The notes under the pieces are model-generated. The model was not told the origin of the DNA. It saw nothing but the letters and a program-made list of their open reading frames with translations, and searched no databases. From NCBI GenBank assembly GCA_025043315.1, contig GCA_025043315.1_4324.1: a stretch of 46,202 bases of DNA. One strand, given 5' to 3'. Numbering within the stretch: the first letter of the stretch is position 1; each line of letters opens with the position of its first letter. This document shows positions 2,729-37,418 of the stretch, one piece after another. Source of the DNA: a phage. Both the position numbers and the translations under genes were made by a program.

Positions 2729-2805
2729 TGGCGCCCGAGGCTGGATTCGAACCAGCAATCTAGAGATTAGAAGTCTCTTGCGATATCCGCTTTCGCCACT
2801 CGAGC
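2729..2805 (-). tRNA. tRNA-Arg, anticodon TCT (reads AGA), CCA encoded
   Basis: minus-strand cloverleaf folded by hand: acceptor GCTCGAG/CTCGGGC, D-stem GCGA/TCGC, anticodon stem AGAGA/TCTCT with loop CTTCTAA, T-arm GCTGG-TTCGAAT-CCAGC, discriminator G, CCA. Confidence 0.8.
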
Positions 2806-4648: not shown

Positions 4649-4798
4649 CTCGGCTACTCTATATGAATTAATATCACCACCAAGAACCAACCATTGAGCC
4701 TTTGCACCATCGTAGGTATCGTAGACTCGAACGTGCCTAACGCTGTTAAACTTGCCAGTGTAGTACGTGTGGATGTAAATCATTTCTTTGCCCCCCTA

Positions 4799-6099: not shown

Positions 6100-6124
6100 A
6101 TTTATTGTTTAGCAATTCGTGCTA
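6082..6124 (-). promoter_or_regulatory. palindromic promoter module (TAGCAATTCGTGCTA 6110-6124; TATGAT 6082-6087)
   Basis: 22-bp spacer; leader CCATATCAACAACGAAGAGG. Confidence 0.6.
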
Positions 6125-6499
6125 TTCACCGCTCAGGAGTGATTTAGCTTTCCGGTAGAACTCAATCGCCGCCTCCACCTCTTCTTCACTGTACCGTAAG
6201 TGGTATGGTAGTCTACTAGGGTGCTCACCATCGTAAGTTTTGAAGTTAGGTTGCCAGCTTAAATCCGTCAAGGCAGGGTTGACGTAAACCTTATCCCCAA
6301 TTAGACAGGTAACATTCATCTTATCGAGCTCTGGAATTAGCTTATCCTTAATCAATAGCATCATTCCATCGCGCCCCGCAAATGGTTTCAGCTTGCGAGC
6401 ACCTTCATATAGAGACCTGATGCCGACAACTCCTTTGCCGTTAACTCCCATTTTCCTGATGATTCTAATCAGTACACCAAGCTCATCACCATTATACAC
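6122..6499 (-). CDS. stand-alone paralog of the C-terminal domain of the 9708..11291 replication protein (GTG start)
   Basis: GKGVVGIRSLYEGARKLKPF...NVTCLIGDKVYVNPAL aligns by eye with residues ~465-525 of the 527 aa protein. Confidence 0.5.
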   Translation of the reverse strand: MYNGDELGVLIRIIRKMGVNGKGVVGIRSLYEGARKLKPFAGRDGMMLLIKDKLIPELDKMNVTCLIGDKVYVNPALTDLSWQPNFKTYDGEHPSRLPYHLRYSEEEVEAAIEFYRKAKSLLSGE

Positions 6500-6645
6500 C
6501 TCTGAGGTATCAATAGAGCCCCAAACGCCGTTGACTGTCGATACCCGTTAGCATTGATTGCAACCCGCAGTGGCGGCAGCCCATCCTGGATAGCGATATT
6601 CATAATCTGCTCGTCCGTCAGTTTATCCTCGTTAAAGTCAAACAT
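6484..6645 (-). pseudogene. N-terminal remnant of a second copy of the 9708..11291 gene, out of frame with 6122..6499
   Basis: 53-codon ORF MFDFNEDKLTDEQIMNIAIQDGLPPLRVAINANGYRQS... matches MFDFNEDKLSVEQVMAIAAADNLPPLRVAINANGYRQS of the full-length gene; same TAATG context. Confidence 0.55.
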
Positions 6646-7124
6646 TACTTAATCTCCTCAATAATTAAACGGTAATCCTTAATGGCCTTCATGGCGGCTG
6701 CAAGCGCCTCACCTTCATACTCAGAAAGGTCTGGCATCACCTTAGAAATCTTAGCCTTGAACTCAGTGATTGCCTCATCCTTGATCGCGTTGTTGGTCTT
6801 CTTTCTAATCCCAATGTTTGCAGTTCCAGGAATCAGCTTAATAACCAGCTTCTTGTTTCCAGCTAGAGTGGTTTCACCAAACTCACTATCACCCTCATCC
6901 TCATCATAATGGTGAGTTGCCTTCAGCCCTGCATCTCTCAACTCAGGCATACGAGCCGTTGTATTGTAGATGTATGAGCTCTTAAGCTTTTGTAGACCAC
7001 CCTCCTCGGCGCCAATAAGGCTCTCAATCTTGTTGAGTGTCACGCTGATCTGCTTATCCTCAGAATTAAGCGCTGCTTTTACCATCTCACGAATCACTTG
7101 GCCTAATGTTACCTTCTTGTTCAT
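6645..7124 (-). CDS. hypothetical protein, first gene of the leftward early operon
   Basis: 159 aa ORF with GAGAGGAG SD and canonical sigma70 promoter upstream. Confidence 0.6.
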   Translation of the reverse strand: MNKKVTLGQVIREMVKAALNSEDKQISVTLNKIESLIGAEEGGLQKLKSSYIYNTTARMPELRDAGLKATHHYDEDEGDSEFGETTLAGNKKLVIKLIPGTANIGIRKKTNNAIKDEAITEFKAKISKVMPDLSEYEGEALAAAMKAIKDYRLIIEEIK

Positions 7125-7155
7125 CTCTATAACTCCTCTCGTTTAAGTTGAATCC

Positions 7156-7184
7156 ATCATATACCGACTTACACATGTAGTCAA
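7156..7184 (-). promoter_or_regulatory. canonical sigma70-type promoter TTGACT-N17-TATGAT
   Basis: -35 at 7179-7184 and -10 at 7156-7161 on minus strand; leader AAACGAGAGGAG resembles palindromic-promoter leaders. Confidence 0.5.
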
Positions 7185-7204
7185 GTGTAATTTTTGGTAA
7201 CTTT

Positions 7205-7540
7205 TGGGGGCGTTACGCGAAATGGCACGCTAGCTAAGCTATAGCTCAATGTAGTTTCGTGTCGTGCGTGTAACGAGGTAAATTGGCTAGATGGCTCCAT
7301 AATGGCTAAATCTCACATAAAATAGCAACAATGTATTCTGATGGGAAAAAACATATAGATATCGCCGGGACCCCCGTTACACGACTTACATACAATAATA
7401 ATAATAATAATAATAATAATAGAAAGAAGATATATATATATATTAAGCACTTATAGCGTAAGTCAGGGCGTATCTGCGCGTAACTAGCGTAACGATAGGC
7501 GCTGGCTTACATCGCGCTACGTCGGTTACGCGTCAGCTCA
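7205..7540. promoter_or_regulatory. regulatory region A: GTTACG-type repeated boxes, (AAT)9 at 7394-7421, (AT)7 at 7430-7443; homologous to region 25515-25850
   Basis: shared blocks AAATGGCA, AGCTATAGCTCAATGTA, AGGGCGTAT, ACATCG-N-TCGGTTACG with region B. Confidence 0.55.
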
Positions 7541-7726
7541 AAATGGCTCAGCCAGAATAAAAATCAACTTGTATGGTAGTCAACCCAGCTTTCATTCACT
7601 AACTCCCCACTTCATTTCACTTTTCGCAACAATCAAAAACATCATTGCATCAGAAGCAATATTGCTGTATGCGCAATAATCATGTGAATCATTGCAATAT
7701 CTGCAACAATCCATAAATCTGACGAA

Positions 7727-7770
7727 TAGCACTTTTTGCTAAAGACATGTTAAGGTGGTGACGCTATAGT
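7727..7770 (+). promoter_or_regulatory. palindromic promoter module (TAGCACTTTTTGCTA 7727-7741; TATAGT 7765-7770)
   Basis: 23-bp spacer; leader TAGCTCATCAACAACGGGGAG before HNH gene. Confidence 0.55.
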
Positions 7771-7791
7771 TAGCTCATCAACAACGGGGAG

Positions 7792-8340
7792 ATGGATATG
7801 AAGATTGATAAAGATGAATTGCGTCACGAAAGCGCACTGATTGGTCGAGTTAGTGACCCTGAAATTTGGAATTCGATATTTGAATATGATGGGGAAAACC
7901 TAATAAGAAAAGCAACAACATCAAGTAGAGCGAGGGCTGGAGATGTTGTGGGGTGCCTTGATAGGGGTTACTTAACTGTCAGGTTCAATAAAAAGCTATA
8001 CTTTGTTCATAGGATCGTATGGGAAATGCATAATGGACCCATTCCTGATGGAATGTATATTGATCACATAAATCACAAGAGAGATGATAACGGATTGGTC
8101 AATTTAAGGCTTGTAACAAGAATTGAAAATCAAAGAAACATGTCAATTAGCAAAAGGAATAGTAGCGGCTTTGTTGGTGTCTCATGGAGTAAGGTGCACA
8201 ATAAGTGGGAGGTTAGAATAGGAGTGGGGAATGGCACGAAAGACATGTATTTAGGAAGATATGATGCCATTGATGAAGCAGTTGCAGTTAGAAAGAAAGC
8301 GGAGTTAGATATTGGGTATCACAAAAATCACGGAGAATAG
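7792..8340 (+). CDS. HNH homing endonuclease with AP2-like DNA-binding domain
   Basis: HNH-type motif IDHINHKRDDNGLVNLRLVTRIENQRN, then SSGFVGVSW...KWEVRI; paralog of 18683..19213. Confidence 0.75.
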   Translation: MDMKIDKDELRHESALIGRVSDPEIWNSIFEYDGENLIRKATTSSRARAGDVVGCLDRGYLTVRFNKKLYFVHRIVWEMHNGPIPDGMYIDHINHKRDDNGLVNLRLVTRIENQRNMSISKRNSSGFVGVSWSKVHNKWEVRIGVGNGTKDMYLGRYDAIDEAVAVRKKAELDIGYHKNHGE

Positions 8341-9707: not shown

Positions 9708-11291
9708 ATGTTTGATTTCAACGAAGATAAGCTATCTGTTGAACAGGTTATGGCAATTGCTGCCGCAGACAACCTCCCACCCCTGCGCGTGGCTATCAAT
9801 GCTAATGGATATCGCCAGTCTCAATCATTCTGGAAGGCTCCGGTCGAGATTGATGCAGCTAATGATAAGTATCCTGTAATCTCACTAGGAAATGATATTG
9901 ATGTTGTTGGCAAGCTGTCAGCCAATATTGCTCGCTCAGTTCAGTTTCCGGAGTCTTCAGCTTATATGCACTTCCTGGGGTGTATTTCCGCTGCAATGCT
10001 GGGTCGATTTACTGTTGAGTATCATGGAACTCAGCAGCCGACTTCGCTGTACGTCGTAACGAGTCAGCCACCATCGACCGGTAAATCAGCAATTAACTCA
10101 CTCTCCATTGCTCCAATGATCGCCGAGACTGAGCGACTGAACGAGGTGCGCAAGCGTGAGCGCAAAAAGATTATGGCCAAGCTATCCGCATTATCCAAAG
10201 AGATGAAACAGGAGAAATCTCCGTCAGAGATGGCTTCACTTTTTGAAGAGAAAGAGGAGTTAGAGGAAAAACTCGAGAAACTTTGTGATATCGTATTCCC
10301 GGTATCAGATACCACACCTGAAGGTCTTGCGCGAATAAACAACCGCCAGGGCAACTTTGCGGTAATTTCTGACGAAGCGACGAGTGTTAACTCACTGCTT
10401 GGCATGACCTATGGAGATGGCTCTAAGAAAACGAACAGCGAACTTGTGCTTAAAGCATGGGATGCTGGTAACGTATCTATCGCGCGTGCGAACGCAGAGA
10501 ACAACATGAGCTTCGTTGCTATGGGTTGCATATCGGTAATTGCGCAGGATGAAACAATCAATGCCATCATGAACGCTGGGGCGCGTGGCATTGGCGTATC
10601 GGAACGTTTCCTTTTGGTCCGCGAGAAGTCATTCCTGGGCGAACGTGTATTCGTTGATGAGAATGGAGACTCAACTTACGAGCCAATTGATGATGGACTA
10701 AAGGCTGATTACTTCCGCTTAGTTCATGAGATAATGAGTGAGCAAGATGTTAAGCTGACAGTAAGCAACTCAGCGATGAAATATCTCAACCGTGCTCGTC
10801 AGGAGATGGAACCTCACCTTGCTGACGGCGGAAAGTATTCGCACACAATGTTGCGCGGCGCTCTTGGTAAGTTCGATAAGCAGGCTATCAGGATTGCAGC
10901 CGTTCTTCACACAGTTCGTAACTGGTTCAACCCAAATGGCGGTAGTCCGCAAAAGTCCAGAGAGATTGATCTCGACACCATGCAAGAGGCTGTAATTATG
11001 TTCCATGAACTGAGTAAGACTTATCTGTCATCTGCAAACGCTGCTGGGCATGCTGGCGACAATGCAGAGATGAATAAGCTGATTGATATTCTGATTAAGC
11101 AAGGTAAGAGCGGTAAAGGTGTTGTTGGTATTCGTTCCCTGTACGAAGCTGCTCGCAAGGTTAAGCCATTCGAGGCTCAGGCGGGAGTGATGACGAAGAT
11201 TAAAGATCACTTGCTGCCAATGCTTGATGAGAAAAACTACACGTGCCTGATTGGTGATAAAGTTTACATTAATCCACGACTATTGGGGTGA
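9708..11291 (+). CDS. P-loop NTPase replication protein (primase/helicase-associated), C-terminal domain duplicated at 6122..6499
   Basis: Walker A-like SQPPSTGKSA and Walker B-like FAVISDE; 527 aa. Confidence 0.6.
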   Translation: MFDFNEDKLSVEQVMAIAAADNLPPLRVAINANGYRQSQSFWKAPVEIDAANDKYPVISLGNDIDVVGKLSANIARSVQFPESSAYMHFLGCISAAMLGRFTVEYHGTQQPTSLYVVTSQPPSTGKSAINSLSIAPMIAETERLNEVRKRERKKIMAKLSALSKEMKQEKSPSEMASLFEEKEELEEKLEKLCDIVFPVSDTTPEGLARINNRQGNFAVISDEATSVNSLLGMTYGDGSKKTNSELVLKAWDAGNVSIARANAENNMSFVAMGCISVIAQDETINAIMNAGARGIGVSERFLLVREKSFLGERVFVDENGDSTYEPIDDGLKADYFRLVHEIMSEQDVKLTVSNSAMKYLNRARQEMEPHLADGGKYSHTMLRGALGKFDKQAIRIAAVLHTVRNWFNPNGGSPQKSREIDLDTMQEAVIMFHELSKTYLSSANAAGHAGDNAEMNKLIDILIKQGKSGKGVVGIRSLYEAARKVKPFEAQAGVMTKIKDHLLPMLDEKNYTCLIGDKVYINPRLLG

Positions 11292-18146: not shown

Positions 18147-18632
18147 ATGAATGCAGTCGACAAGCGAACCATTAACGGTAATAACGGAACCATCCGCACT
18201 GAAGACAAAAAACAACGGAAACGACCTTCAGGTTACTACGTTTTGAAAGATGAGGTAAGGGCGGGTTTACGTGCGCGGCTGGAAATTGTTCTTGATTTCT
18301 TCGGCACAAAGGCAAATATGGCAAAGCAATTAAAGGTAACACCACAGGCTGTAGAGGAATGGTTTAAGCGCGGTATGATTTCTGCGCGCGGGGCTCAACT
18401 CTCACACAACTACTACAAGCGAACAGGGGAAGGCTTTCGCGCCACATTCTGCCGACCAGATCTGCAATTCGACGGAAACGGCAAGCCTCTTACTCTACGT
18501 TGCAAAAAGCGTCACATGCTGCGTGTTGTTACTGAGGCTGAATTAGCCACCAAGCCAGAGTGTCGATCATGGCGCAAGATTAAGGAAGAGAATCGCAAAA
18601 AGCGAGAAGCAGAGACAAATAGCACGAATTGA
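18147..18632 (+). CDS. HTH DNA-binding protein (Cro/YdaS-like), candidate regulator
   Basis: HTH-like TKANMAKQLKVTPQAVEEWFKRGMIS; basic N-terminus. Confidence 0.5.
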   Translation: MNAVDKRTINGNNGTIRTEDKKQRKRPSGYYVLKDEVRAGLRARLEIVLDFFGTKANMAKQLKVTPQAVEEWFKRGMISARGAQLSHNYYKRTGEGFRATFCRPDLQFDGNGKPLTLRCKKRHMLRVVTEAELATKPECRSWRKIKEENRKKREAETNSTN

Positions 18633-18662
18633 TAAACAATGGCGCTATGCATTGTGTATAGT
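18620..18662 (+). promoter_or_regulatory. palindromic promoter module (TAGCACGAATTGATA 18620-18634; TATAGT 18657-18662)
   Basis: 22-bp spacer; palindrome overlaps stop of upstream gene. Confidence 0.55.
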
Positions 18663-20156: not shown

Positions 20157-20181
20157 GCATTAAAGATGATACAATCCACTT

Positions 20182-20196
20182 TAGCAATTCGTGCTA
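20182..20196. promoter_or_regulatory. palindrome TAGCAATTCGTGCTA without the usual -10/leader, upstream of tail fibre gene
   Basis: exact palindrome core; no TATAAT-like hexamer at the 22-bp position on either strand. Confidence 0.4.
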
Positions 20197-20221
20197 AACA
20201 ACAATATAGGAATTGATTATT

Positions 20222-22579
20222 ATGGCAATTTATGACTTAGGAACCGCATCGCTAGCCGCGAATGGCGAAGTGACTGGCGTAGGAACAACATGGAAGGCAC
20301 CACTTACACTGATCAGAGTTGGTGCAACCATCGTATTTAAAACTGAACCAGTACAGATTTACACCATCTCAGAAATCATCAGCGATACGCGGATTAATGT
20401 TTACAACCCTAATTCTGAAACTGTTCCTGCTGGCACTGGTTACGCGATTCTTGCGCACGACGGGATTACCGTCCAGGGTTTAGCTCAGGATGTTGCCGAA
20501 ACTTTGCGCTACTATCAGTCAAAAGAGACCTCAATTGAGTCATTAATTGAAATAATTGAAAACTCAGATATTGATGTTATTGATGGCAAAATTCAGGAAA
20601 TGCAGCAAATTCTAAGTAGCACAATGGCAGCCGAAGGATCAGCAAAATCCAGTAGTGATAGCGCTCTTGAATACAGTAATAAATCAATAAGCAGCGCTAA
20701 TGAGTCAAAGTCTGCAAGGGATGAGGCTGTAGCCGCTAAGAATTCGACAATTGAAGCGATTAATAACGCAGGAGATGCAGGTACACTAGTGACATTATCT
20801 GGTTCTAATGGGGCATCACTTATTGGAACCACTGATGGTTCAACCATTCAGGACGAGATTTCGAGTCTTAAAGCCAATGGGGCTTCAATTATTCGAACCA
20901 CTGATGGTTCAACCATTCAGGACGAGATTTCGAGTCTTAAAGCCAATGGGGCTTCAATTATTCGAACCACTGATGGTTCAACCATTCAGGACGAGATTTC
21001 GAGTCTTAAAGCCAATGCTGGAAATCTTAGGGCAGAACTAGCTTCTGATAATGGATTTAATATCGTCAATTACAAGAGGCCTGGTGTTAATGGTTCTGTA
21101 ATTAATTCGCTATCTACCAGGTACGCTTACACTTTAGACGCCGTGGCTGATTTCGGAGCTGACCCAACAGGTTCAACAGATAGTTACGAAGCATTGCAGG
21201 CGTGGGCGAACGCATGTGTTGCTGGGCCATGGGCTACAGGAACTATTAACGGAATATTCAGGATCAGTAAAACACTTGAGTTCGCCAATATCGCTGGATT
21301 GACCATTATTGCTAACTGTTACATATACCCAACTTTCGAATCTGGCGATGCTGTGATTCGCTATCGCAATGGCCAGGGTCTTCGTGTTTACGGTCGCTTT
21401 GAAGCGTCAGGTCAGAATAAGATAGGTATCCGTGCGGCTCATAAGATTTACACCGATAATGATAATGGTTTTAGCTTTTCCTACCTATATGGTGCTTGCG
21501 CTAGTGATGCTCTTACTGGTTTCGAGTTTGGTGACGCGGCTTATCCTAGCGGTCTAGTTTCCGAAATGTCACTGATTGGTGGTTACTCAGTGGGGTGCCC
21601 ATGCGCGGTTCGAGCTATAGGTTCCCAGTGCTATATTAACTTGGATGGATTCGATGCTGTGTCTGGAGGGGTGGGTGATCTTAGTTCCGTTACACAATAC
21701 ACCATTCATGTAAAGGGGGCTAATGTTAAAGTTCGTGGCGGTGAGATTCAGCACAATAATAATATCTACGGAGCTAGCATTCTCGTAGAGCCTCAAACTG
21801 ATCCTCTTTTCAATAATCAGTTCGGAAGCATTGAGGTTAATGCTTGCCATGTTGAGACAGCAGCGCAGCTGTGTTTTATTGCGAATCTTGATGGTGTGGA
21901 ATCACCTAAGAGTGATTTTACTAATATTTCATTTAAAGGACTGCGTGGTTATCACTCCCAGGATAACGGACCATTTATTAGCACGCACTCAACTGCCATT
22001 GAAAGTAACTATTCTGGAACCATTAGTTGGGCTAATATGTCTGGAATGCACTGCGGAGTCACCAGAACACAGCCTAACATACAGGCTGGGAGTCTATCTA
22101 GAGTGTACTACGACGAGACATATGGTGCTGGGTTCCGTAAAGGATTACAGTCTGTATCTGGCGGTATATTGCACTTTAGTCGTAGGCCTGTATGTATAGC
22201 TCAGAACACAGGTGGACAGACTCTTACTGCAGCCACTGACAAAATAATTTGGGGGGGGCTGGTTTCAACTGACGACTCTTACCGCTGGAACGCACAGTAC
22301 AGCGGGGGTACATTTACAGTGCCAGCGGGTGGTTTAAAGGATGTTCACGTTCATGCTGTAGCAAGGATTGACACAAATGTTCAGCTTAGTATGACTGTTT
22401 TCGTAGACGGCGGCGCACAAAGTTTGGCTATACCCAGCGCGGGAGCGGCTGAGCTTAATGCATTCCTTGGTGATTTAGATGCGGGTAGAGAAATTGAGAT
22501 CAGAGCTAGTGTAAGTCCAGGTTCGGCTATTTTGAATGGAGGTTATTTTGAGAGGATGACTATTACTGCATCAAGGTAG
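20222..22579 (+). CDS. tail fibre / tailspike protein with three tandem 23-aa repeats
   Basis: 785 aa from ATG at 20222 (track 788 aa from TTG 20213); repeats GASxIxTTDGSTIQDEISSLKAN x3; C-terminal Gly/Asn-rich region suggestive of a beta-helix. Confidence 0.7.
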   Translation: MAIYDLGTASLAANGEVTGVGTTWKAPLTLIRVGATIVFKTEPVQIYTISEIISDTRINVYNPNSETVPAGTGYAILAHDGITVQGLAQDVAETLRYYQSKETSIESLIEIIENSDIDVIDGKIQEMQQILSSTMAAEGSAKSSSDSALEYSNKSISSANESKSARDEAVAAKNSTIEAINNAGDAGTLVTLSGSNGASLIGTTDGSTIQDEISSLKANGASIIRTTDGSTIQDEISSLKANGASIIRTTDGSTIQDEISSLKANAGNLRAELASDNGFNIVNYKRPGVNGSVINSLSTRYAYTLDAVADFGADPTGSTDSYEALQAWANACVAGPWATGTINGIFRISKTLEFANIAGLTIIANCYIYPTFESGDAVIRYRNGQGLRVYGRFEASGQNKIGIRAAHKIYTDNDNGFSFSYLYGACASDALTGFEFGDAAYPSGLVSEMSLIGGYSVGCPCAVRAIGSQCYINLDGFDAVSGGVGDLSSVTQYTIHVKGANVKVRGGEIQHNNNIYGASILVEPQTDPLFNNQFGSIEVNACHVETAAQLCFIANLDGVESPKSDFTNISFKGLRGYHSQDNGPFISTHSTAIESNYSGTISWANMSGMHCGVTRTQPNIQAGSLSRVYYDETYGAGFRKGLQSVSGGILHFSRRPVCIAQNTGGQTLTAATDKIIWGGLVSTDDSYRWNAQYSGGTFTVPAGGLKDVHVHAVARIDTNVQLSMTVFVDGGAQSLAIPSAGAAELNAFLGDLDAGREIEIRASVSPGSAILNGGYFERMTITASR
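20811..21017 (+). repeat. 3 x 69-bp in-frame tandem repeat inside tail fibre gene
   Basis: units 2 and 3 identical, unit 1 differs at a few positions. Confidence 0.9.
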
Positions 22580-24982: not shown

Positions 24983-25177
24983 TTACCCCTTGACCTTAAC
25001 CACTTTAACAGACTTCAAATCCTCCTCAGTGAAGTAACCAGTCAGCACATCTCGGGCTTCTTCTTTGGTCTCGAATCTGTCCGCTTCGCTCTTATCTGTT
25101 GTGTATCCAGCAGGGCCGCCAAAGTAGCAGTCTCCGAACAGTGCGTTGTTTTTCTCTTTGATAATGTAGTATGTCAT
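24983..25177 (-). CDS. hypothetical protein
   Basis: 64 aa ORF. Confidence 0.4.
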   Translation of the reverse strand: MTYYIIKEKNNALFGDCYFGGPAGYTTDKSEADRFETKEEARDVLTGYFTEEDLKSVKVVKVKG

Positions 25178-25524
25178 TTTTGTAACCCCACGATGATTTC
25201 GATATGCTCTTTAGTTGTCTTTTCTATTCTAATTGATTTATTTTTCCAGTCTTCACCATATGATGACTCGCATAATTTAAGAGCTATTTCGTAAGTTAAC
25301 CCAATAAAAACCGGAGCATAGCTAGGTAGTATTACGGTGTGAGCTGAGTATCTATCTATTTTCTTTCCCATTTTCGTATCTCTTTGGTTGTTTGCTTTCG
25401 ATGAGGTAACTATATATTCGCAAGTGCAGCCAGTCCAATTGGTTTCGCCAATCGTTGATTCAAACTTACGCGTGAATATTTGTAATTCCGTGTAGGCATT
25501 GCCACTTGTTACGTAAAATGGCAT
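25174..25524 (-). CDS. hypothetical protein (start uncertain)
   Basis: 116 aa ORF whose ATG lies inside conserved regulatory region B. Confidence 0.4.
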   Translation of the reverse strand: MPFYVTSGNAYTELQIFTRKFESTIGETNWTGCTCEYIVTSSKANNQRDTKMGKKIDRYSAHTVILPSYAPVFIGLTYEIALKLCESSYGEDWKNKSIRIEKTTKEHIEIIVGLQK

Positions 25525-25850
25525 CTAAGCCCAGCTATAGCTCAATGTAACCGGCGTGTATATCGTGTATATCATTTATTGCTGATGGTGTATTGGTATA
25601 GCTGCCGCACAATACTGTATAAATCCACATGATATTAAAATTATAACCGGAACACTCTATAGAAGTAGTTACATGATATACACAGTAATATATATAATAA
25701 TAATAATAAGAGTAAAATGTTGATATATATAGATATTTTAATGTAACTAATGCGTAAATTGGCGTAACAGGGCGTATATCATTTTCCGCGGATGAGATTG
25801 TATACATCGAGTTACATCGGTTACGTGTAACTGTGATTTGTGGTGAATTT
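25515..25850. promoter_or_regulatory. regulatory region B, diverged homolog of region A, with short (TA)n/(AAT)n tracts
   Basis: shared blocks with 7205-7540; GTTACG boxes; AT-rich simple repeats at 25680-25730. Confidence 0.5.
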
Positions 25851-25859
25851 GGCGATAAA

Positions 25860-25902
25860 TAGCACTAATTGCTAAAGGAATCTGACTGTCTTTAGGTATA
25901 TT
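25860..25902 (+). promoter_or_regulatory. palindromic promoter module (TAGCACTAATTGCTA 25860-25874; TATATT 25897-25902)
   Basis: 22-bp spacer. Confidence 0.55.
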
Positions 25903-26004
25903 TATGCGCATGGCGGCAATGGTGTCGTCATACAACCTGAATTTCAGGCTTAACATCAAATCATGACCCAAATTTGGGTCATGAAAAACAGAAGAGAGAT
26001 TAAA

Positions 26005-34442: not shown

Positions 34443-37418
34443 TTAGTTGAATCCACGAAGGTAAGCATACGCCCTGCCGCCCTGCTGGAAAGACTGAGCA
34501 ATCTCTTCCGCTACGATTGCCTTGACGCCGTTTTGCAATGCTTTAGCTTGCTCTGGGTCGCTACCCACCCCCGAGTTTACGTTAACAGTGATTCCGCTAA
34601 CATTAACATCCGTTCCACCAGAAACCAAACCGCCACTTGCATAACCAGATGGACCACCAACCGCGCCGCCGTTTGCATATCCCTTCATTAGAGCGTAAAG
34701 GTTTTTTACGCCAATTCTGCTAGTCGCTTCTTTTGTGAATACGAACTCACCGCGGTGTACCGTTCCTGCTGGCTGATACTTACCACCATCACCAGTATAG
34801 CCGCCGCCAGCAAAACCTATGGCAGATGCAATTGAACCAATAGCACCACCTGTGCCACCGAAGCTACTTAAGCTAGACTCGATAGCCTTGACAACAAGAA
34901 GCTGAGTTGCAATCTTGGCGATCTGCTTAAGAATGTTAACCGTGAATTCCCTGAAATTAGTCTCGCCAGTTGTTACAAGGTTTGTAATCTGGTCGGTAAT
35001 ACCTTCAAAGACCGTTGTGGTTAAACTTCCAGCAATTGAGAATGCATCCGTCGCGCTCTCAGCCCAATTAGCAAAGGATTGATTCACGCCAGCGAGCCAG
35101 TTTTCACGTAGCGCATCCTCCTGAGCATAAAAGTTACGTCTTGCTTCGAGAAGTTGCGCGAAATCTACGTCATCAAGAGAACCACCAGCATTAACCTGAT
35201 TGGACTGAAGAGCCTGAATCTCTTTGGCTCTCTGCTGCTCCCGAGAAGACAGGCCAGCACCCAAATTAATATTGCTTGCCTCATTGTTAATCTGAAGAAT
35301 CTTCTTGCGGTTATCTTCAGCTAACTTATTGGCACGCTCCTGCAAAACAATCTGATCGCCTAACTCAGCTTTCTGCCTTGCGAGTGCAAGAACTTTATCC
35401 TTCTCAATGAGAAGTCTTGCTTGCTCTTTGGTAATTGAGCCATCAATTTGCCTCTGCTCAAGAATCTGGAATTTAGCCTCTTCCTGAAGGTACTGCTTGC
35501 GCTCATTACTTATTACTGCGCCAATATCCCTGTTTTCCTGAAGTACCTTTAGTTGAGCCTGAAGTGCCAGCACGCCAGATTCGTAACCAATTGTAAGGTC
35601 TCTTTGCTCTTTAGCCCTACCATTTTCTTCTTTCCTGCTCTTCTTGATCGCATCAAGTTCATCCTGAAGCGCCTTCTTCCTTTTTGCAAACTCCTCATCA
35701 GTACCTGACTGCTCATTGGAATTCTGATTTTCCCTGCGTGTAACGTAACCAAGTTCTCCTTCTCTGATTCTGGCATCTCTCTCCCTGATAGACTTCTCTA
35801 GCTCAAGGTTTTGCTTCTTGGCGGCATCGATAATCTTCTGCTGACTCTTGATTACATCATCACCGACACCATCAAGGCCTGGGATATTCTGCAATGCCTG
35901 AGTTGCACTAATTACAAACTCACCAATCAGCGCGTCACCTTGGTTAATGAAGACCTTAATCTGTTCAATTGTCCCGGCTATTACATCAACAAACAGGTTT
36001 AGAGCCCCAACCGTTCTGCGACTAATTGCATCCCATACATCAGATATGTACTTCCTGAAGTCACTCCAGGCCAATTCAAGAGGAGTAAGCTGGGCTGCAA
36101 TATCGTTAAGGTTTGCTTCCTGTGATTTGCTAAATATATCAATGGCAGCAGTTACGGCTTCAACCTCACCCCTAGTCTCTCTCAATCTTTCAATTGTTGT
36201 TAACTGCCCCTGTGTAAGGAAGTTAAACCTCTTGTCTAAATCAGCAAGTCCTTGAATTGGGTCGCTCGCAATCTGGTTATAGTAACCAGTAATCTCCTTC
36301 GCATCCCTACCTGTCAACTGCGCCCATCTGGCGGTTGATTTGGTAATCTTGTCAATCTGAGTCAGCGTAAGGTTCCCTTGCTCAATAAGGCTTGTTGCGA
36401 TGCTAGTCACAAGTCCTCTTGTAGCACCAGTAGCGTCAGAAACAGAGCTAACCAACTCTCTAACCTGCGAGATTGATGCGATTGTAGAGTTGTTGGAGAA
36501 TGCAATCGCAGAATTTAATGCTCTGAATTCACTCTCTGCCTGAGCGGCACCGATACCGAGAGCAACAAGTGCCCCACCCAAAACGCCAACAGCAACATTG
36601 AATGGATTTAAGGCTGCGAGCGCGAATCTAAAGGTGTTACCAATACCTCCAAATGCATCCTTAATTTGTCCGCCTTGCTGAATTGCAATAAGCCAAATCG
36701 GAATGCCGCCAGCAAGTGATGTCCCAATATCTGTAATCTGCGCTGGCAATTGAGAGATTGCAGCCTTGTATTGACCTGCGCTTAATCCTGATTTCTGAAA
36801 AGCCTTACTCTGAGCAATTAACTGGGTGTTTGCCTTCTTTGATGCATCGGCGATTCTGTCAATAATAGGCGCCGCCTGAGAACTTACGCCAAGCTGAGCA
36901 GCTTGTAGCTTAAGATACTCCTCACGCGTCAATGTTGCCGCTTGAGCCTGACGCTCAAGTGATGCAATGAACCTATCCGCTTCAACCTTTGCCTTTGCCT
37001 TATCCTTTGCAGCTTGCGCTGCCGCTCTACCCTCTTCAGTTAGCGCCGCACGTGAACGAGCAAGTTTTGCGTTCTGCGTTTCAAGAGCCTCACCTAAGCG
37101 GAAAAACTCCTCATCAGGAACAACGCCAGCTGCGAATGCCTTATCAAGACCTACTGCCGCCTCCTGAAGTTTACGGAATTTTGCAGCCGTTGGGTCGATA
37201 GCTGTTTGCAACTTAGCCAGAGATGCTTTCTGCTCAGCCAGTGCGCGAGCCGTATCTCTAGCCTGGGTTTTAGCAACCTGCTCGGCATTTACGAACTCAC
37301 TAATCCCAGAGGCAGCCTGTTGGTTGGCCTGTCTGAACTTTTGCAGGGATTGCGTGCCCCTATCGACTTGCGAGACGTCTACGGCTAGTGTGATTCCGGC
37401 TAATTCATTTGTTGCCAT
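34443..37418 (-). CDS. tail tape measure protein
   Basis: 991 aa, long Ala/Gln/Glu-rich coiled-coil region, Gly-rich C-terminus; follows G/GT chaperones. Confidence 0.85.

Follow-up and report, generated by a model that had tools for sequence, protein, structure and literature searches.

What is the role of a 650-bp non-coding stretch that separates divergent operons of a T1-like phage and is crowded with short repeats and two microsatellites? The stretch (positions 7141-7790, here region A) belongs to a phage contig that was analysed whole (46,202 bases, called the window; all coordinates are on it), and an interpretation made from its letters alone (the sequence-only reading) had regarded the density of its repeats as typical of an origin or control region. 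Region A is the left-end control region common to T1-like phages (Drexlerviridae), and as such an already known, ordinary conserved feature of a known phage family. On balance we favour an explanation in which it consists of four parts: a leftward sigma-70 promoter, a module of short boxes around an AT-rich core (module A), a packaging-start (pac) zone and a rightward promoter marked by an ATAGCAC box. What is new is that the box/AT module is duplicated at 25.5 kb (module B), which the sequence-only reading did not mention, and that the pair offers a candidate replication origin as a testable lead.

The phage in the window is a coliphage, an Rtp-like member of the T1 family (Drexlerviridae, Braunvirinae), and its gene order follows that of Rtp, T1 and TLS in reverse orientation. 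Region A is 91% identical to its counterpart in DTL, and in the 137 phage records with a match it is conserved as non-coding DNA. The intergenic gap (7125-7791) holds internal open reading frames (ORFs) of 36-46 aa only; since relatives differ from the window here by 1-nt indels and most of their records carry no annotation for the stretch, we conclude that 7141-7790 is non-coding, and for the same reasons the 36-46-aa ORFs were rejected as genes. The earlier description of a 650-bp non-coding stretch between divergent operons is thus confirmed, with its features placed to within 1-2 nt, and the proposal of a control region between divergent gene arms is supported, as the region is non-coding in the relatives and the repeat boxes are conserved there.

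The box/AT module and its second copy

The boxes of module A (Table 1) are mirrored around its AT core, running > < > < > > to the left of the core and < < < > > to the right of it, and are accompanied by a perfect palindrome at 7237-7246. The sequence-only reading had listed six CGTAAC/GTTACG boxes, of which four are exact (7212, 7479, 7488 and 7525), the other two, which it had placed at 7268 and 7376, being one-mismatch variants (TGTAAC and GTTACA, respectively). Eight of the 37 matches to STTACRC in the window fall inside 7168-7531, for which the rate outside this stretch predicts ∼0.2; shuffled sequences yield 16.3 ± 4.2 matches in total, and a looser box pattern gives 11 boxes in ∼370 bp against 2.7 per kb genome-wide. 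Phylogenetic footprinting in eight aligned phages from several genera shows that all module A boxes are retained and that the spacers between them drift.

The center of this arrangement is an extreme of duplex instability. By nearest-neighbour energies no other 60-bp duplex of the 46-kb window is as unstable as the AT core (z 5.7), and outside the modules the highest score is z 3.3. As single-stranded DNA (ssDNA) the core is no more structured than its shuffles (z +0.3), and the same holds for ssDNA folding of five sub-segments, which addressed the idea of a cruciform, hairpin or ssi-type origin (z -1.2 to +0.8, none beating shuffles). Both microsatellites of the sequence-only reading are present: the AAT tract counts 9.3 units with 100% matches and the (AT)7 tract is perfect.

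At 9 and 7 perfect units the repeats have sufficient length for slippage, and it had been suggested that these two could vary in length, in which case they might form a hypermutable contingency locus that switches the flanking operons by length change. When repeat lengths were compared across relatives this expectation failed, as the tracts (28 nt of AAT type plus (AT)7) are of identical length in 10 of the 11 distinct relatives compared, which span at least four genera, even as these relatives differ by 8-20% elsewhere in the region and accumulate AAT-to-ATT substitutions inside the tract. The sole length variant, a metagenomic relative (OERM01000355.1, around position 4700), has gained one AAT unit (+3 nt) and carries (AT)5 for (AT)7 (two units fewer, -4 nt), a net change of -1 bp. 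Equal lengths in 10 of 11 relatives, together with a variant that nearly keeps the total, argue that the tracts are under length constraint and not hypervariable. As they also lie >200 bp from either promoter, we regard a contingency switch as highly improbable.

Module B is a paralogue of module A. The two share three collinear blocks (25508-25828 in module B) of 81%, 78% and 85% identity (E 1e-5, 2e-9 and 0.025, respectively), the distances between the blocks are nearly equal (164 vs 160 nt and 132 vs 135 nt), box order and orientation are the same, and in duplex instability the AT core of module B ranks second in the window (z 5.4). The surrounding region B (25380-25960) is non-coding, lies between divergent operons as region A does, and is conserved in 134 phage records, its most widely conserved part being the core at 25657-25829. 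An ATAGCAC box (25858-25877) follows module B within 30 bp. In region A, ∼190 extra bases (7536-7723) that are missing from B are intercalated between the module and its ATAGCAC box, and because these bases are exactly where genome ends of relatives map (see below), the pac segment appears separable from the module, which would then have another role. We also observed a -10-plus-leader motif, TATAGTTACCTCATCGAAAGCAAA (25391-25414, minus strand), inside the mechanically called ORF 25174-25524; the start of this ORF is therefore probably over-extended, and the non-coding span of region B would be ∼580 bp.

The duplication is family-wide. Modules A and B are recognizable as paralogues inside Rtp (83% over 123 bp, E 1e-33) and inside T1 (75% over 91 bp, E 3e-10), and in the whole genomes of the window phage, Rtp and TLS the A and B cores rank as the two 60-bp segments of lowest stability (z 5.0-5.7, the next segment reaching at most 3.6); within the ∼31 kb of T1 that were covered they again take the first two places (z 4.7 and 5.5). 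An unbiased k-mer enrichment test on the modules of the window, T1, TLS and Rtp returned, besides AT repeats, a lineage-specific box common to both modules of each genome: GCGTAAC for the window phage, TGTAACA for T1 (all six copies examined), GTGAACA for TLS and TCCGCGG for Rtp (again all six). That the boxes differ between lineages yet match between two distant sites of the same genome points to a phage-encoded, sequence-specific binder.

Table 1. Coordinates of region A, its paralogue at 25.5 kb and the associated genes and repeats in the window
Feature	Position	Strand	Description
Large terminase	178-1743	minus	Terminase_6C, E 4e-8
Small terminase	1913-2419	minus	P22 gp3 type; PF16677, E 5e-13
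Mini-helicase gene	6122-6645	minus	phrog_7327; second gene of the leftward operon
DUF7174 gene	6645-7124	minus	Left neighbour of the gap
Leftward sigma-70 promoter	7156-7184	minus	-35 TTGACT (7184-7179), 17-nt spacer, -10 TATGAT (7161-7156)
Module A	7190-7535		11 STTACRC-type boxes around the AT core, plus palindrome AGCTATAGCT; ∼350 bp
AT core of module A	7386-7446		(AAT)9 (7394-7421), AGAAAGAAG, (AT)7 (7430-7443); candidate DNA-unwinding or bending element
Putative pac/genome-end zone	7536-7723		Specific to region A, ∼190 bp; genome ends of relatives map here
Rightward promoter module	7724-7791	plus	Box GAATAGCACTTTTTGCTAAAG (7724-7744), -10 TATAGT (7765-7770), leader CTCATCAACAACG, ribosome-binding site GGGGAG (7786-7791)
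HNH_3 homing-endonuclease ORF	7792-8340	plus	PF13392, E 2e-19; right neighbour of the gap
DUF3987 helicase gene	9708-11291	plus	T1 gp09/Rtp67 homologue; PF13148, E 1e-41; phrog_2373
Module B	25455-25835		Paralogue of module A; AT core 25686-25746 with (AAT)5 and (AT)4-5; palindrome AGCTATAGCT at 25533
ATAGCAC-box copies	7727, 9089, 15620, 18116, 20179, 25860, 26671, 38435		Positions of the eight copies

The probable packaging zone and the flanking promoters

The segment that distinguishes region A from region B probably holds the pac zone, judging from where the genome ends of relatives align; the sequence-only reading had made no mention of packaging. The records of T1, TLS and Rtp all begin inside the homologous divergent intergenic gap, as identified by synteny. 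The T1 record opens inside a GATTGTTGC repeat, 538 bp ahead of the first left-arm gene, and has positions 1-2800 annotated as a terminal repeat; position 1 of TLS, which sits in the homologous gap, is a restriction-mapped pac (German et al. 2024, PMC11447400); and position 1 of Rtp aligns to ∼7667. The authors of SU57 took a sudden change in read frequency to mark the genome end and placed the pac of T1-like phages in this untranslated region (SU57 paper, 2020), and the end of their record aligns to 7559/7560. For MSK, PhageTerm gave a packaging start at 36,862 running forward (p 1.6e-9; MSK paper), which aligns to 7576 and points leftward, in the same direction as in T1. Rao1, EC3a and ZL19 start at ∼7586, ∼7541 and ∼7538, respectively, and the several linear records that end in the region (Rtp, Sf12, Rao1, ZL19 and EC3a) all do so at equivalents of 7538-7685.

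The sequence under these ends is itself highly ordered. The ends of SU57, MSK and Rao1 fall at or within a few bases of an invariant block, AAAATCAACTTGTATGGTAGTC (7560-7583), which is followed by TTCATT(T)CAC repeats (7590-7620) and by a cluster of GCAACAATC, ATCATTGCA and GCAATA elements (7626-7711), with GCAACAAT at both 7626 and 7703. ATTGC/GCAAT occurs six times in 7644-7698 against 0.2 expected, so that the repeats first seen at 7630-7710 (GCAACAATC/ATTGCA) proved real and clustered, and 7625-7745 is nearly invariant in eight aligned relatives. The small and large terminases match headful-type families, and their genes lie ∼5 kb from the zone on the side towards which packaging would proceed. 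In P22 and Sf6 pac is inside the small terminase gene, and here it would be ∼5 kb from that gene.

Several observations weigh against this placement of pac. The mapped ends are those of relatives and not of the window phage itself, they are spread over ∼150 bp (7538-7685), and some record starts (that of Rtp and possibly others) may copy the T1 convention and not a measured end. For the close relative TR2 a PhageTerm pac has been published at 18,637, which in record OP251154.1 is a 40-bp gap between the ssb and Erf-type recombinase genes, outside regions A and B, and thus conflicts with MSK, SU57, TLS and T1. Finally, no sub-molar pac fragment was seen in SU57 (SU57 paper). Surveys of contig ends were uninformative on termini: those of viral contigs returned copies of known phages and one contig that breaks inside the (AAT) tract, and those of metagenomes one true relative among 11 matches.

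On the left, region A is bounded by the canonical sigma-70 promoter that the sequence-only reading had assigned to the leftward genes. It is present with 10 of 12 consensus matches in its hexamers and is conserved, both hexamers being kept in six of eight aligned relatives and changed at one position each in the other two. The promoter lies 32 nt upstream of the DUF7174 start codon (7124), which is preceded by the ribosome-binding site GAGGAG (complement of 7133-7138), and it serves the leftward arm of DUF7174, mini-helicase and small early genes. One of the boxes, box a (7167-7174), falls inside its spacer.

On the right, the palindromic module earlier assigned to the HNH gene (7727-7770) is promoter-associated: TAGCA-N5-TGCTA (7727-7741) followed by the -10 element, in one of the eight T1-family ATAGCAC-box copies of the window. 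These eight copies of TAGCACTTTTTGCTAAAG (7727-7744 in region A) compare with 0.04 expected. The box matches the consensus of a 21-nt intergenic direct repeat, aaATAGCACnnnTTGnTAAAA, described in TLS and also said to be in T1 and Rtp, whose function was listed as open (German et al. 2024, PMC11447400). Alignment of the eight copies adds to that description a TATAGT-like -10, spaced constantly at ∼19 nt from the box, and, in most copies, a shared leader, CTCATCGAAACGAAAC. Seven copies are oriented towards a downstream gene, whose start codon follows after some 65-90 nt; the copy at 20179-20196 has no gene after it on its strand. The fixed distance to the -10 suggests that the ATAGCAC box is a promoter element, situated ∼5 nt further upstream than a normal -35, and this displacement suggests in turn factor dependence or an UP-like role.

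The HNH_3 ORF behind the rightward promoter appears to be fused to the promoter, the ribosome-binding site and the first ∼17 codons of the resident first right-arm gene. In comparison with DTL and Rtp the portion ∼7845-8337 is inserted, similarity breaking at ∼7844 and resuming at ∼8338.

Elsewhere in the window a tRNA-Arg gene (anticodon TCT; 2729-2805, minus strand) separates the early genes from the gene of the small terminase, and SU57 was likewise reported with such a tRNA (SU57 paper, 2020). A tRNA scan found none in region A, and an Rfam search of 6900-8000 at a permissive E-value gave chance-level matches only (best E 0.096, far below gathering scores). A 69-bp tandem repeat (20807-21017, 3.1 copies, 97% matches) in the long ORF 20213-22579 gives the product, a likely tail-fibre protein, a 23-aa repeat.

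Possible roles of the modules

If the modules are bound by a phage-encoded protein, the DUF3987 helicase encoded 2 kb to the right of region A (93-100% identical to Rtp67) would be the likeliest candidate. Its C-terminus is predicted to form a winged helix resembling the origin-binding domains of ORC/Cdc6, and its C-terminal ∼100 aa are common to a second protein, the mini-helicase, which corresponds to the first 42 and last ∼130 residues of the helicase. An AlphaFold2 model of the mini-helicase (predicted local distance difference test score 80.6) places the winged helix at residues 55-122; a Foldseek search with this model returned nothing significant, and comparison of the DUF3987 helicase sequence with Protein Data Bank chains nothing better than E 0.1. 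The mini-helicase is intact in relatives (174 aa) and is frameshifted in the window into ORFs of 58 and 125 aa, which could reflect a pseudogene, a sequencing error or a programmed frameshift. The phage also encodes a primase with the kind of zinc ribbon seen in P4-alpha/T7-gp4 primases, and the T1 annotation likens this protein to P4-type alpha. P4 alpha combines primase, helicase and a C-terminal winged-helix origin-binding domain (PMC2777425).

Together these elements suggest the following model. The host sigma-70 promoter would start the leftward early arm and the ATAGCAC box with its TATAGT would drive the rightward arm, the P22-gp3-type terminase would make the first cut of a packaging series in the pac zone, and packaging would then proceed to the left, across module A, the early genes and finally the genes of the terminase. 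Modules A and B would be assembly sites of a protein-DNA complex in which a phage protein, perhaps the helicase through its winged helix and possibly with the mini-helicase as a modulator, binds the mirrored lineage-specific boxes and melts or bends the central (AAT)n/(AT)n tract, giving one or more replication origins, possibly a two-site origin like P4 ori/crr. That the modules are origins is plausible, as boxes and core fit iterons and an unwinding element, and we hold it tentatively, at somewhat less than an even chance. The fuller version, in which A and B form a two-site T1-like origin whose boxes are bound by the DUF3987 winged helix, tuned by the mini paralogue, with a length-constrained tract that is opened and one copy beside pac, is possible and a shade more doubtful. 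If true, replication start and packaging start would share one control region.

A number of points count against the origin part of this model. The modules contain no GATC, their only matches to DnaA boxes carry one mismatch and are at chance level, and no promoter reads into the AT core. DnaA boxes and GATC clusters characterize the oriC-like variant and are not defining for origins served by phage initiators. The exact IHF consensus is absent from module A and occurs once in the core of module B. As for the boxes, the STTACRC consensus was defined after inspecting the sequence; the footprinting in eight relatives is independent of this post hoc choice. As for the binder, a Cro-like helix-turn-helix protein (18147-18632; Rtp52/T1 gp23 homologue), which is conserved in all four lineages, is an equally possible candidate. 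Comparing the divergence of the helicase winged helix with that of this regulator across the four lineages was uninformative, as both diverge in parallel. GC skew simply tracks the direction of the genes and was left out of the argument.

Were such a regulator the binder, modules A and B might instead be operator arrays that time early versus middle expression, with the AT tract as an UP-like or bendable element. Each module occupies precisely the gap between two divergent transcription units, with an ATAGCAC promoter after it (7724 and 25858) and a leftward promoter or leader on its other side (7156-7184 and 25391-25414), and the position of box a inside the leftward promoter spacer would suit an operator, as would the conservation of the helix-turn-helix protein in all four lineages. 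Stoperator- or enhancer-type roles were also weighed for the family repeats by the TLS authors (PMC11447400). However, six other ATAGCAC promoters do without any such module, extreme and length-conserved duplex instability would not be needed, and an array of 11 sites over ∼350 bp is large for the control of a promoter. We therefore consider operator arrays rather unlikely; they and origins are not mutually exclusive.

The entire stretch 7190-7723 might also be pac, with the small terminase binding the boxes around a bendable AT core and cutting nearby, and with module B as a decayed or secondary copy. The ends of relatives do lie 25-150 bp from the last box and a near-IHF site, AATCAACTTGTAT, is found at a mapped end. 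Known pac sites are built in a comparable manner, that of P1 from seven hexamers and an IHF site and that of SPP1 (pacL/pacR) from repeated boxes around a bend. In addition, ATATA repeats have been tied to the T1 pac in earlier work (cited in the MSK paper). Yet module B is equally conserved and carries the same boxes with no ends mapped to it and without the 190-bp segment, and its core is more conserved than its flanks (134 records), which is unexpected for a decayed copy. A weaker argument is that the lineage boxes change while the terminase stays of the P22-gp3 type. A single large pac thus seems improbable, and we retain the model in which the modules assemble a protein-DNA complex and the pac zone is a separate segment.

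Comparison with known systems

T1 is a classic T phage, and T1-like phages often contaminate laboratory cultures and industrial fermentations. The present mapping narrows the probable packaging-start zone of an Rtp-like phage to ∼190 bp and gives the ATAGCAC box, the function of which the TLS authors listed as open, a place at a fixed distance from a -10 element. Analyses of TLS (2024, PMC11447400) and SU57 (2020) found no replication origin, and a duplicated, family-wide module of boxes with an unwinding-prone core is a concrete candidate for the unmapped origin of the T1 family. These features are defined targets for marker-frequency mapping, footprinting and the engineering of packaging- or replication-defective phages, and provide a meaningful start coordinate for genome records.

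The closest match to region A is the left-end region of T1, TLS and Rtp, which by synteny likewise lies between two divergent early arms and has the same order of elements: an ATAGCAC promoter, a GATTG/GCAAY cluster with the record start, TTAC-type boxes, an AT core, more boxes and a sigma-70 promoter. In all three the AT-rich core is ∼215-280 bp from position 1. Nucleotide similarity to Rtp is 88% over 7528-7748, whereas over 7141-7527 no nucleotide similarity to either Rtp or T1 was detected. The boxes are lineage-specific. The window phage differs further by the HNH endonuclease gene inserted just after the rightward promoter, and the ends of its nearest relatives (7559-7586) are ∼80-100 bp to the left of the equivalent of the Rtp/T1 record start.

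The pac sites of P1 and SPP1 resemble the zone described here in being non-coding sites with short repeated motifs near a somewhat imprecise cleavage zone, and packaging in T1-like phages is unidirectional and headful (TLS and MSK papers), as in P1/SPP1. In contrast to those sites, the zone here is ∼5 kb from the small terminase gene and the region has no GATC methylation sites. Iteron origins of the lambda type and of plasmids share with modules A and B the clustering of short conserved repeats that flank the most easily melted DNA. Their iterons are tandem and 19-22 bp long, whereas the boxes here are of 7-8 bp, irregularly spaced and mirrored; moreover, the module is neither in nor beside an initiator gene, exists in two copies per genome and lacks DnaA boxes.

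The origin of P4 requires both of two elements, ori and crr, which share repeats and are ∼4.5 kb apart. Modules A and B are likewise two separated cis elements that share short repeats and adjoin an AT-rich stretch, and the TLS box GTGAACA resembles the P4 type I repeat, TGTTCACC. The window phage also encodes a P4-alpha-type zinc-ribbon primase and a helicase with a predicted C-terminal winged helix. The two systems differ in that primase and helicase are separate proteins here, that the helicase is of the DUF3987 type and not the D5/SF3 type of P4 alpha, and that the modules are 18 kb apart. Even so, P4 is the closest working analogy for the paired modules of the T1-like phages, and it is meant as an analogy and not as a claim of membership.

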